Source: Octopus vulgaris
Lineage: Eukaryota
DNA length: 64,000 bases
Reading direction: 5' to 3'
Assembly (NCBI GenBank): GCA_951406725.2
Contig: OX597832.1
Span: 69,874,001-69,938,000 of the forward strand
Shown: piece after piece, positions 3,761 to 54,589 of the stretch
Layout: every line of letters begins with the position of its first letter
How positions within the stretch are numbered: the first letter of the stretch is position 1
The notes under the pieces: model-generated
What the model was told of the DNA's origin: nothing
The model's input: the letters and a program-made list of their open reading frames with translations, nothing else
Database searches by the model: none
Program-made: the position numbers and the translations under genes

Positions 3761-3885
3761 TATCGCCTGAGGAAATGAACACATGAATTATGATCCATGG
3801 ATACTATGTGCGGAACTGTAATCGTCCCGGAATACGGAGTATGATTGCAAGAAACGTCTGACCTTTGGAAACACGCGTAGCGATG
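3761..3885 (+). ncRNA. Candidate type I hammerhead ribozyme with a large branched stem II insert
   Basis: TATCGC-CTGAGGA (3767-3773)...GAAA-CACGCG-TA-GCGATG. Stem I TATCGC/GCGATG, GUA cleavage triplet, near-palindromic stem III. The stem II closing pairs are weak. Confidence 0.5.
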
Positions 3886-4815
3886 CATAAAATATTTATA
3901 AATTTCATCCATGTATTATTATTGCTATCACTCTGTGTATATATACATATATATATGTGTGTGTGTGTGTGTATATATATCCATATATATATATATATAT
4001 ATATATATATGGATATATATACATACACACACATGCGCAAAACACGCACACACATACATAATGTCAAATATATGAGCGGTCATGTAAAACTGTAACTGAA
4101 TCAGAGCCATCACTCAGAAGTGAGAATGGCTTTATATCATTCACCTTGCTTTCTCTCCAGCCACCTTTCACACTGAAGAGCATCGAGGATGTTATAGCCA
4201 GAGCATGGCAGTTTCACCAGTACTTGGCTGCTGCAGTCCTGCTGTGTAGACTGGAACAAGATGAAAAAGAGGGAGCTTTGCTCATAGAGAAAACGCAGTA
4301 TAGCGTTCAACAACTGAATGCCCGAACTGACGACTGGAAACCAAATATCTCCAGTACGCCATAAACATTTTCGGATCTACAAATCTGAGTGGTAAGAAAC
4401 TGAAATCGTGATATGAATATCACATTTGTATTAACTATCTATCCATTTATATATTCCTCCTCTCTCTCTCCCACTTTCTCTTTCTCTCTCTTTATATACA
4501 TATATATATGTATGTATGTACGTATATATGTATATACATATATACATATGTATGTATATATCTATATACATAGATACATATATATATATATATATATATA
4601 TAAACATACATGTATACGTACGTATGTATATGTGTGACTATGCATGTGTTTGTGCGAGTTCAGGCATGTATATATATATATATATATATATATATATATA
4701 TATATATATGACCGGAGTAAACACATAAATGTGAAACAAGGTGGAAAAAAGAGTACTCAAATACCAGTGGTAGAGTAATATGCTTTATTTTAAGCAGCAG
4801 AAAATTCAACAAAAT

Positions 4816-4853
4816 CTGTTACTCTGAGTTTCTCGTTGCCGTTCATCAGACAG
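4816..4853 (-). ncRNA. Minimal type I hammerhead ribozyme in the PLE 3' pLTR (sense to the ORF)
   Basis: Reverse complement reads CTGT-CTGATGA-aCG(GCAA)CGa-GAAA-CTCAGAG-TA-ACAG: intact core, GNRA-capped stem II, palindromic stem III, GUA site. Confidence 0.85.
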
Positions 4854-5841
4854 TTTCTGCTAGAATGGAACATATATATTAATTCAATCTATACTCTTAC
4901 AAACGCTACATCTTTAAAAAGAAATGGACTTGTTTGATTGGCCCTTTAGAAAAAACGGTCAATCTTCGAGCGATAAACAAAAGGTCAAAAATATATGTAT
5001 ATATATATAAAAAAACTTATAAAAATTATAAAATCCGAGGAAAAAACCGAGGAAAAAACCTATTGCCGTTAATGAAGACAGTACAAATTAATGCATAGAA
5101 ATTAAACCTGTTATAAATACTGCAATACATATTTATATTAAAATCCACATATATATATCAACATACACAAAAGGATGCGCGTAAACGCCATACATACATA
5201 TACAGACGTATGAATATGAATCTAAATTATACACATAAAAGCATGTGTACATATATTCACGCAAACCGTCTCGCACGCAAGCTAAAATTCATCTATGTAG
5301 CAATTCTCATATACTGAGCAAGGAGGGGGAACGAAAGAAAGGGAAAGAGAGAAAAAGGAACGAAGGAGGGGTGGGGAAAAAACTTGTAGCGATATTATTG
5401 CCATCTATAGAGGCCAGTATACATACACAAGTTTGAATTGATACATATACATACCGTCGTGTGTATGCGTGCTTAAGCACAAGCATACTTTCACTTACAC
5501 ATACACAGATACGCATGCTTACAAATACATATGCTTTGCTATACACAAACTTATATAAACATTCTAAATTTGACAACATTGCTTTTAAAAAATGGGTGCA
5601 TTAATAAAAATATATACGAAAGACATATAAAATAAAATATAACATCCTATTTCGGGTCATTTATAAATAATCAAGGTTAAATATATAATCAAGGTAATCT
5701 TATGCAATACAATAACATGAAAACAAAGTTTGTAGGTTTTTCCTAATATATATGTAGAAACAATAAGACTTTGCTATAGGTCCGTCGTAGCGCTCAAAAG
5801 TCAAAATCAAAATCAAAAAATCAAAATACAAAATATATACT

Positions 5842-51400: not shown

Positions 51401-51869
51401 GTGCTATAGGAATGCATTACCTGTGCGCGAGAAGTTATTCAGGCACGGAATGTCAGTGCCACCGACGTGTCCAAGATGTGGGTTGGACGATGAAACCGTT
51501 CAACACGCTTTTGTACAATGTCGGGAGCTGTCAGGCTTGATAAGTTACGTTGAACACGTGTTGTCGCATCTGGGACGAGTACAGCTGTCGGCTGGATCTA
51601 TGATTAAGATGATACCGCCAACTGGACTCTCAAAGGAAGGTAAGGCTTGTTTTTACTGTACGGTGGCAGTATTGAAAGAGTGTGTATGGAGAACTAGAGT
51701 GGAAGGTCTAGTGAAAGGGTCCTTTATCTCTGGCCCCGGTTTGTTAAAATACTTCGGATATCATCTGAAGAGCAAGATGGGGTTGGAGAAGAGGAGCCTG
51801 CCACAGCAAGAGTAAATGGAACGTTGGAAGGATGTGATGAGAAAGGTGGGTGAGAGTAACCCAGCTTAA
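48481..51869 (+). pseudogene. LINE ORF2: APE endonuclease, reverse transcriptase and zf-RVT, with one frameshift and three premature stops
   Basis: CINVRG, GVAVLF, VYAP, VGDFN, SYIDRIFV, TDHK, GYWK, KSPGLDGLPYEFY, NYRPITLLN, LDQSKAFDRV, VRQGCPLSPLLY, AYVDD, CPRC..ETVQHAFVQC. Confidence 0.95.
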
Positions 51870-52247
51870 TCATCGAGGAAAGGAAAAATCAGCTGCTGGG
51901 ATTTATAGGCTGCCGGGTTCAAAATTGAAACTGGTACCTCCCATTACCTTTCACTGTACATAACTGTTTAAAATAAAGAATTAATATTAAAAAAATAAAA
52001 GAAAAGAAAAGAAAACATACGCACTAAAAGTTCTCGTGATAAAGGCAAAAGTAAGCCAAGGTTTCGTTTCAAGGCAAAGTAAGCCAAGTTTTCGTTCAAG
52101 TTACATAAAATTTTATTTTTGTAATTTTTATAATTTCATTCGAACTCGCATAGCATTTTTGTAATTGTTTTGTCCTGTAATGTACCCATTCTATGTTAGA
52201 TCTATTGATCATAATAAAGATAACCTTCATCGAAAACCTGTGTTTAC

Positions 52248-52292
52248 CATGCGTTGACGAGAGGCAATTACCTTGAAACTATAGTCCGTATG
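52248..52292 (+). ncRNA. Type I hammerhead ribozyme immediately 3' of the Tx1 LINE
   Basis: catgcg ttgacga gagg caatta cctt gaaa ctatag tc cgtatg. GUC site, palindromic stem III (ACTATAGT), stem I extends through the TSD (52224-52323). Confidence 0.8.
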
Positions 52293-54589
52293 TATCACTT
52301 GGGTTTTCGAGGGAGGATGACCTCCCTTTGCAAATAACACAAGGGCACTGAAATTTTGTGTCTAAGGCCAGCTGGTGACGTTGATCCCCTGGGGCTAAAA
52401 GCATCAGTAACATTCCACCCCCAATGGCTAGCCACATTCAGATGGCTAGAACACTTTACGTTGTCGAGCGGTTACTGTTTATACCTCGTTCAGAGATTTA
52501 TTAATGCTTTGTTTTATTATAATTGAACATAAAAACTAACATTGATATATGTATGTGTGTGAATGTATGTATTTATGAAGGGTTCTTTTCACTTCCTGTC
52601 TACTAGATTGACTCAAAATGCATTGGTCAGTCTGTGAGTGTATTAGAAGGACGTTTCTGAAGCTGCCAAAGGCTATGGGAATAAATCTGTAACCACACGG
52701 TTCCAATGCGAAAATTTTCTGCAGATTCAATGCAAAAATGCACAATATTTACTCCAGTATGTTTTGAACACAGAACGTGAAACCCTAGAATAAACACCAC
52801 CAGGCATTTTCCGATGCTTTAATGACCTGAAAGTAATTCGAAGAAAAACTCTGACAATACACAGAAAAAATTCATAAAATATTTGCGTCTATTATTGTTC
52901 ATGTTTTTGTATTTCTTCAAAGGATTCAATACTAAAACGTGTACAAAATAACAATTCAAAAACACTAACTCGATTATTTCTGCTAAAAAGAGATATAACA
53001 TGTTAGAAATCGCTCATGTTTTATGCATGTATATAAAATATAGGTTATTAAATAATATTAAGTGTTTCAATACTTGGCTTTTCACATTAGAAAACTGAAA
53101 ATGTCCATAGATATTATGGGAGTCATTTTCTCTCTTATTAAGCAGATAGCAACAGGTTTGTGACTATATACAAACATATGCAAATTATACTATCGGAACT
53201 GAGAATAGTAACGTTTACGAATGCAGATATGTACATACATACATACATACATACATACATACATACATACATACATACATACATACATACATACATACAT
53301 ACAAGTTCATTCCATCCCACATCCAAGGATATCTTTACGCAGTTCTGTTCAGGAAAAAGAAAAACTCTACAAATACCTACTGCACAAAAGAGGAAGGTCA
53401 ACAGTTCACATTAAATGTAGGCTGAGCAAAGATAGATTGAAAATGCTAGCCACATCACCTCCAACTGTGAAAGAATGTCTTCTCTTTATTAACTCCTCGT
53501 GAGACATGCTGAAACAATGAGATGCACAAGCAGAGAGGTAACCACAGCGATGACACTCTGCACACAGCCTCATGAAGTTCACAAGTAGTTCTCACTGCCA
53601 CGCAGCTGTGTGCTGCCATCTCTTGGCTCGATACAGAACTAGTCCGGGAACTTTATGATACTCTCTTGTACAATCAAGTAGAGGGGAATACTTTGAGACT
53701 GGTGAGCCAAATACATCCTAGTGGAACGTAAAACTAAAAACTCCCACCAAAATTAAACAAAATCGGTCTAATAGTGTTGTTTGGGATGAAACATTAAAAT
53801 CGTGCTCTGACATAAAAATCAGCTGCCAACAATGATGTCAGTGTGGTAAGAAAAATGCAAGAGAAGGAGGATGTCTAAAAAAACTATTGATTAGAAGTTT
53901 GCAGATCCAGCATCCAAGACACCTGTTAGAACTACATGTTATATACCAACCCGCAAGGACCAAGGCATAGATTTATGGAGAAAGGATATCGGCCCTTAAT
54001 TCATAACATATAAATGGCCGCCTACACAAGCAATAACAATTACCTTTTCTTTACAATCTTGCCGCTGGGAAGGCGGCCGATTGAAAATAAACTAGAATTT
54101 AAAATCGTGAACATGCATAAATACATACATACATACATACATACACACACACGCACACACGTATGCACAAATACACACGCAGACACCACACACACATATA
54201 TATGTATATATACATGACCGGACTCTTTCAGTGACAGGGCTTTGGTCGACCTGATGTTATCGTAGCCCAGAGTGACACGCTATGAGACCGAACCCGGAAA
54301 AATGTGGTTGTGAGGCAAACTTCTCCCCACACAACCGCGTCTGCGATTATACATAACGAATCTGCGTGTGTGTGTGTGTGTGTGAGTATGCATACTTTAT
54401 ATACTTCTACGAATGTGTGCACATGTACATATGTATGTATGTATGTATGTATGTATGTATGTATGTATGTATGTATGTATGTATGTATGTATATGTTTTG
54501 ATGATTCTTCAAAATGTTTGATTCTACTAAACTCGTTTAATTACTTACAAGAGGGATTCGATCACATGAGAGTATATAGATTTCAAATT

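Follow-up and report, generated by a model that had tools for sequence, protein, structure and literature searches.

Which elements carry the hammerhead ribozyme motifs that recur in a 64,000-nucleotide stretch of the Octopus vulgaris genome (assembly GCA_951406725.2, contig OX597832.1, positions 69,874,001 to 69,938,000; the window), how are they copied, and why is one of them interrupted by a long interspersed nuclear element (LINE)? The window holds seven sets of hammerhead motifs, here called families 1 to 4 and, after their first positions, the 3761, 18934 and 33327 families (Table 1). The answer that we consider probable is that the motifs belong to the ends of coding Penelope-like elements and to two non-coding retrozymes (families 2 and 4), that these retrozymes are likely copied by a Penelope reverse transcriptase (RT), and that one of them, family 4, serves as target for a LINE which likely borrows its promoter.

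The LINE is 5.5 kb long, and an open frame of 1134 amino acids for its second open reading frame (ORF2) is preserved at another locus (L151). Compared with solved structures, ORF2 was closest to L1 ORF2p (E value 1e-62), with R2 at 1e-25. The closest named relative of the protein belongs to Argonauta hians (64% identity), and protein searches returned no named Tx1 reference. Judged by its ORF2 domains, its affinity to the L1 group, the CCHC-type ORF1 and its target preference, the element resembles the Tx1 clade. A 2026 repeat annotation of the octopus lists 13 active L1-Tx1 families; its main text, as far as accessible, mentions neither ribozyme nor small nuclear RNA (snRNA) nor target (PMC13282606).

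Throughout, the loci examined were the top-scoring copies only. The LINE searches yielded 609 and 79 first-look candidates, of which 40 in each case were scored, and ends were read in 40 of 41 matches to the 3' end and 35 of 41 matches to the 5' end; the junction counts take in the window copy and one duplicated pair (L106/L107). Twenty of the 40 3' junctions adjoin family 4, eight the corresponding position of an older hammerhead repeat and four U2 snRNA; one is a tandem copy in U2, and seven are of other kinds. In three of these seven, a sister element comes after the family 4 14-mer. Ribozyme repeats account for 28 of 40 junctions, more than the 20% of flanks that Kojima takes as target preference. 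At the 5' end, where classes were assigned by manual reading, 23 of 35 copies stand behind a retrozyme, three behind a U2 promoter and nine behind the 3' end of another element. Within the ribozyme repeats the LINE is inserted in sense orientation about 25 nt before the hammerhead core; in U2 genes it enters at U2 nucleotide 1, and Rfam recognizes U2 directly behind it (184.9 bits, model positions 1-192). Among the 30 best U2 loci, two have the LINE in front of them, and the U2 genes with a LINE lie on two contigs. A BLAST comparison of family 4 with the older target repeat gave no significant match; collinear features and the alignment of their hammerheads suggest that the two are related. 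The LINE 3' end is also seen next to the target in contigs from two sequencing runs of unrecorded kind that carry other organism labels; possibly these copies are orthologous, and we give them little weight.

The target duplications measure approximately 14-19 bp and are locus-matched. In 21 paired ends the longest common string was 9-36 nt, mostly 15-21 nt, and agreed with the local flank. Relative to the window copy, flanks are 69-91% identical and LINE ends 78-97%. This divergence of the flanks, together with the locus-matched duplications, argues for independent insertions of the LINE copies. In one pair of ends (L102/L123) the 5' duplication is unlike the 3' duplication, the latter matching the local stem. 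There is also a shorter second element, 1.4 kb long at one locus and 2.7 kb at another, with an ORF1-like sequence and no ORF2 match; among 30 of its 40 matches, classified manually, 22 stand behind a retrozyme at the site used by the LINE, four at the end of another element and four elsewhere. Individual loci show further associations. At L139 the LINE 3' end is followed by a sister LINE family (ORF1 40% identical) at the same target 14-mer. At L089 a family 4 copy has the LINE inserted at the start site, and the tail of this copy is immediately followed by a family 3 Penelope end, so that three element types are stacked. At L150 a hammerhead behind the LINE 3' end is joined exactly after GTC to a 5'-truncated second element, a single case that possibly reflects template jumping to the end of a self-cleaved RNA.

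The insertion point itself recalls an snRNA gene. Most U1 and U2 genes are preceded, at 56-61 nt, by the motif ATCAG(T/C), which stands at an equal distance before the retrozyme insertion point. Between -64 and -46 it occurs in 22 of 26 U1 loci, 27 of 30 U2 loci and 20 of 34 LINE 5' flanks, all 20 within the 23 flanks of retrozyme type; the control interval from -46 to -28 contains none. Three matches further upstream of the LINE are the U2-promoter copies. The U1 and U2 loci (L226-L281) comprise several unrelated types of upstream sequence that have only ATCAGT in common, at -56 to -61. By this position ATCAGT would define the proximal sequence element (PSE) of this genome, and if it is read in this way the LINE insertion point becomes +1, likely an snRNA-type transcription start. 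In the three U2-promoter copies and the tandem copy in U2, the U2 14-mer is followed by a retrozyme-type 14-mer starting exactly at ATCG, which fits a donor RNA that starts at the host +1. For family 2 the promoter match is weaker, and in families 1, 3, 3761, 18934 and 33327 no constant position of the motif was found.

Ribozyme and upstream motif might, alternatively, be irrelevant. The LINE would then use its own promoter and pick a short DNA motif by the preference of its endonuclease alone, the retrozyme being the commonest carrier of that motif. This would accommodate the copy found at an ATCG site in unrelated sequence (L134), the nested copies remote from the promoter motif, and the U1 genes, which start with ATAC and are unhit in 26 loci; Tx1 elements are, moreover, described as targeting various ribozyme-free transposons (PMC4494074). 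However, a motif of 4-6 nt is present millions of times in 2.8 Gb, yet most 3' junctions fall in ribozyme repeats. Selection of a motif also sits badly with an insertion position that stays constant from old to young targets despite differences in the sequence duplicated, and with the extra 5' 14-mer, which begins precisely at ATCG. We regard endonuclease preference alone as unlikely and prefer the reading in which the LINE borrows the promoter of its target.

Families 2 and 4 are retrozymes: their units are non-coding, occur in tandem and are accompanied by inverted copies and tails of Penelope type. The family 4 unit comprises 359 nt including a covarying hammerhead, and a paralogous empty site for the window insertion is present at ~32500-32630. 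We scored 40 of 2277 candidates for family 2 and 40 of 3167 for family 4; the family 2 query spanned a tandem junction, which biased that sample to tandem copies. At least two same-strand units were seen in 3 of 29 family 2 loci and 7 of 29 family 4 loci, most copies consisting of one to two partial units. Inverted copies were present in 19/29 and 13/29 loci and intact cores in 16/29 and 28/29, respectively. The 3' ends of family 4 cluster at two points ~48 nt apart, neither of which is the ribozyme cut, while the 5' ends are scattered; we looked for a concentration of retrozyme 5' ends at the start site and at the cut site and found none. Two fixed 3' ends fit the Penelope tail signature (PMC8557442, PMC11167929), and families 2 and 4 are likely copied by a Penelope RT. 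Covariation was evaluated for family 4 only. In 14 related sequences 7 of 25 pairs had changed on both sides and 93% of cells were paired; paired cells and covariation score exceeded 500 of 500 shuffles and all slid controls. Two further repeats of the window resemble the retrozymes. That at 33681-34040 is a 278-nt palindrome with a tail like those of retrozymes; it has a relative upstream of the second element at L310 and possibly belongs to the retrozyme-like group. The inverted-plus-tail repeat at 17479-17760 resembles the 3' portion of family 2 (74% similarity) and has no hammerhead in this copy.

Families 2 and 4 might instead be truncation products of unseen protein-coding Penelope elements that do not propagate as units, as truncation does hold for family 3 and the 18934 family; the small number of family 2 and 4 candidates scored, and the preference of the family 2 query for tandem copies, leave some room for this. 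Against it, homology upstream of the unit wraps into the preceding unit, with up to three units in a row, and subfamilies diverge by up to 30% with compensatory changes. Furthermore, a Penelope ORF continuous with the unit was found in 0/30 family 2 and 0/30 family 4 loci, in contrast to coding sequence in 21/30 family 3 loci. Penelope fragments, positioned by manual reading, lie near family 2 in 2/30 loci and near family 4 in 4/30, none contiguous with the unit. We consider truncation of these two families quite improbable and retain their description as retrozymes that propagate as units. That LINE and retrozyme form one composite, which arose by a single insertion and then multiplied as a whole through a Penelope RT or segmental duplication, would suit the duplicated pair L106/L107 and the C3 U2 copies, which may be array duplicates, but is highly improbable and largely refuted, since the flanks diverge more than the LINE ends and form distinct subfamilies, the target duplications agree with the flank at their own locus, the LINE has entered U2 genes on two contigs and a second element family occupies the same site.

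The first-pass annotation of this window had proposed a single class of ribozyme-bearing mini-retroelements, moved in trans by the RT of Penelope-like elements. This can be upheld for families 2 and 4; families 1, 3 and 18934 must be taken out of the class, as coding sequence for RT and GIY-YIG (families 1 and 3) or for GIY-YIG (18934) occurs within them. That only one element carries RT or endonuclease sequence is correct within the window and does not extend to the genomic relatives. Family 3 matches are 99-100% identical, and because of this identity the element is likely still active. A full copy (L091, C2:103928000-103934500) has an RT-endonuclease frame of 785 amino acids and pseudo-long terminal repeats (pLTRs) on both sides. 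A separate upstream ORF of ~410 amino acids at this locus has no Pfam match and overlaps the 785-amino-acid frame in a different frame. For the 18934 family, locus L312 runs upstream into GIY-YIG coding, a stretch common to a second copy. The RT of family 3 was identified by Pfam and the endonuclease from motifs and weak similarity between families; in the 18934 family the endonuclease end alone was seen. A partial tandem or inverted copy with a tail occurs in families 1, 3 and 18934. These families are the 3' ends of coding Penelope-like elements and thus ordinary truncation products, as the annotation had foreseen for families mapping to the pLTR of an autonomous element. First-look candidates for the three degenerate families numbered 568 (3761), 3872 (18934) and 1105 (33327), of which 40 each were scored. 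In the search for a parent of the 3761 family, RT and endonuclease fragments were found near one locus in opposite orientation, not continuous with it; no parent coding was found for the 33327 family in 15 loci.

All seven motif sets of the first-pass annotation, four clear and three degenerate, were recovered at its coordinates, and the inverted copy with a tail that it had described for the four clear cases was seen in each. Its motifs at 46436 and 52248, recovered by inspection and by descriptor, are the two arms of one insertion that the LINE has split. The type I core around three helices and an NUH site are present, with U at position 3 in families 3 and 4. Our descriptor, composed after the motifs were known and missing 26604, 3761 and 33327, found 7 sites in the window against 0.52 +/- 0.71 in 100 dinucleotide shuffles, none of which reached 7. 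The genomic relatives of the three degenerate motifs, read by eye in alignments of 15, 20 and 15 loci, have mostly intact cores and a palindromic or near-palindromic stem III. Folded as single sequences, most motifs performed poorly and no better than shuffles (z ranging from +0.4 to -3.0). Rfam hammerhead models gave no match at the gathering score in seven loci, none at E<=10 over 52100-52520 and none among the 150 of 281 whole-window matches listed, the best of which were microsatellites fitting microRNA models.

Taken together, the following mechanism can be envisaged. The family 4 unit would carry an snRNA-type promoter whose +1 is the LINE insertion site. Retrozyme monomers running from cut to cut may circularize, and a Penelope RT that primes internally could roll round these circles, yielding insertions of one to three units. 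A LINE at +1 would be transcribed from the host promoter, so that its RNA begins with a 14-nt piece of the host. In the least certain steps, the LINE RNA would read through into the repeat, the ribozyme would cut ~60 nt past the LINE end, and the target-matching 3' tail left by the cut could aid priming.

Several observations weigh against parts of this scheme. The retrozyme flanks are related, so that the promoter match reflects one or two lineages and not 20 events. In family 2 and the older repeat the motif doubles as a hairpin arm and could be conserved for that or another cause. The LINE was found at none of the 26 U1 loci and its nested copies lie far from any promoter motif; this suggests that the LINE probably recognizes its target by sequence rather than through tethering to the promoter. 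Specificity may be lower in short truncated LINE copies than in the top-scoring ones. Among the examined loci, neither family 2 nor family 4 could be linked to a parent Penelope element. Family 4 has non-canonical cores (U3-G8), the older repeat has C at position 4, and these ribozymes may cleave poorly; elsewhere, eight of nine tested retrozymes did not cleave according to a recent preprint (bioRxiv 10.64898/2026.07.22.740005). Lastly, the number of covarying pairs in family 4 does not by itself exceed shuffles, 81 of 500 being as high.

Tentatively, and with rather more doubt than confidence, we propose that the LINE lineage may be a specialist parasite of a circular-RNA retrozyme, using the promoter of its host and a 3' end trimmed by the hammerhead, with the target-matching tail finding the next copy. 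If so, the LINE follows its diverging target and spills into U2 genes, and three tiers are present: Penelope, retrozyme, and a LINE with short passengers of its own. The LINE would offer a natural test of whether target specificity resides in the endonuclease or in host-derived RNA ends, and its site points to the transcription start of the retrozyme. The inversions and tails provide sequence evidence for the copying of retrozymes by Penelope enzymes, for which the 2026 preprint relied mainly on co-occurrence and pLTR similarity. The hammerheads alone would add a further genome to a known phenomenon, and the idea of mobilization in trans is already published; new are the target-specific LINE and the promoter reading.

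The remainder of the window contains broken frames resembling a Helitron Rep/helicase, recognized by eye (37173-42361), and a fragment of another LINE RT on the minus strand (14919-16852). Nested inverted repeats at 34901-37006 (34955-35159 with 36384-36580; 34901-34952 with 36955-37006) are probably a non-autonomous DNA transposon; their CTGATGA yielded no hammerhead by the descriptor. Very long trinucleotide runs occupy 9790-13600, including ~1.8 kb of (AAT)n, and the output of a generic repeat finder on the window was dominated by microsatellites.

Table 1. Coordinates of the LINE, the retrozymes, the Penelope-like elements and their hammerhead motifs in the window
Feature	Position	Strand	Remarks
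LINE (L1/Tx1 group)	46690..52223	+	ORF1 with CCHC-type knuckle; ORF2 with apurinic/apyrimidinic (AP) endonuclease, RT, zf-RVT; stops and frameshifts in window copy
LINE target duplication, 5' copy	46676..46689	+	first base is the putative transcription start
LINE target duplication, 3' copy	52229..52242	+	also 5' strand of extended hammerhead stem I
PSE-like motif ATCAGT	46616..46621	+	60 nt upstream of LINE insertion point
Family 4 retrozyme insertion	46291..52522	+	split by LINE; 13-bp target duplication at 46291-46303 and 52510-52522
Family 4, inverted arm	46304-46529
Family 4, forward part	46530-46689 and 52224-52510		tail at end
Family 4 hammerhead, inverted arm	46436..46480	-	U3-G8 core; motif inspection and descriptor
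Family 4 hammerhead, directly 3' of LINE	52248..52292	+	U3-G8 core; predicted cut after 52286
Family 2 retrozyme	26038..26923	+	partial tandem of a ~470-nt non-coding unit; tail; flanked by (TA)n on either side; inverted 5' copy 26038-26251
Family 2 hammerhead	26604..26701	+	long stem II (insert ~60 nt), 10-nt palindromic stem III; predicted cut after 26695
Family 1, 5'-truncated Penelope-like element	4709..7706	-	between (TA)n runs
Family 1, RT/GIY-YIG remnants	5842-7073
Family 1, 3' pLTR tail	4709-4777
Family 1, inverted copy	6925-7706
Family 1 type I hammerhead, sense pLTR	4816..4853	-	motif inspection and descriptor
Family 1 hammerhead, inverted copy	7631..7668	+	motif inspection and descriptor
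Family 3, head-to-head pair of pLTR ends	26963..27461	.	young protein-coding Penelope-like element
Family 3 hammerhead	27050-27087	-	U3-A8 core
Family 3 hammerhead	27372-27409	+	U3-A8 core
3761 degenerate hammerhead	3761..3885	+	old repeat family (70-79% identity); from genomic relatives
18934 hammerhead	18934..19000	+	one core change in window copy; 3' end of protein-coding Penelope-like family; from genomic relatives
33327 degenerate hammerhead	33327..33418	-	old repeat family; from genomic relatives

How does this locus compare with known systems? Families 1, 3 and 18934 show no essential difference from the hammerheads of Penelope pLTRs, with which the octopus elements have in common the palindromic helix III, U3-A8, opposite-strand motifs 100-700 bp apart, the inverted 5' copy, the tail and (TA)n targets (PMC4209133; Craig et al. 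2021, PMC8557442); the U3-A8 core, the palindromic helix III and opposite-strand pairs in Penelope elements were described by Cervera and de la Pena (2014, PMC4209133). Animal retrozymes have been proposed to be non-autonomous Penelope derivatives, one of nine tested being able to cleave (Li, Clavereau and Pollet 2026, bioRxiv 10.64898/2026.07.22.740005), and for mussel retrozymes, with units of 350-390 bp, mobilization by Penelope machinery was proposed (Cervera and de la Pena 2020, PMC7229834). Like these metazoan non-LTR (long terminal repeat) retrozymes, the octopus ones are non-coding tandem units with a type I hammerhead. Unlike the published ones, they are mostly dispersed insertions of one to three units with Penelope inversion and tail ends, U3 cores and a dedicated LINE parasite.

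Tx1-clade LINEs target U2 (Keno), transposons and satellites, and their transcription from the flanking target has been suggested, as has co-transcription of R2 with its host been reported (Kojima 2015, PMC4494074). The octopus LINE resembles Tx1-clade elements, including Keno and Tx1-Mar, in its AP endonuclease and in multicopy targets such as U2 genes; it differs in the hammerhead-repeat target and in the ~14-19 bp duplication at the putative start site. Its identity with Keno was considered and rejected, as U2 resumes at nucleotide 1 here and at nucleotide 39 behind Utopia and Keno (PMC4640811). Newt satellite 2 is likewise a hammerhead repeat with an snRNA-type promoter (Coats et al. 1994, cited in PMC2220036), whereas the octopus promoter is proposed from motif position only. 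Literature searches found no report of a LINE targeting newt satellite 2, nor, with Repbase, Dfam and subscription journals outside the search, of any LINE targeting ribozyme repeats. R2 and R1/SART depend on transcription by the host, their integration can be helped by RNA from the flanking target, and R2 encodes its own 5' ribozyme. The R2 ribozyme is part of the element and lies at its 5' end, whereas in the octopus the ribozyme is supplied by the host repeat, on the 3' side of the LINE.

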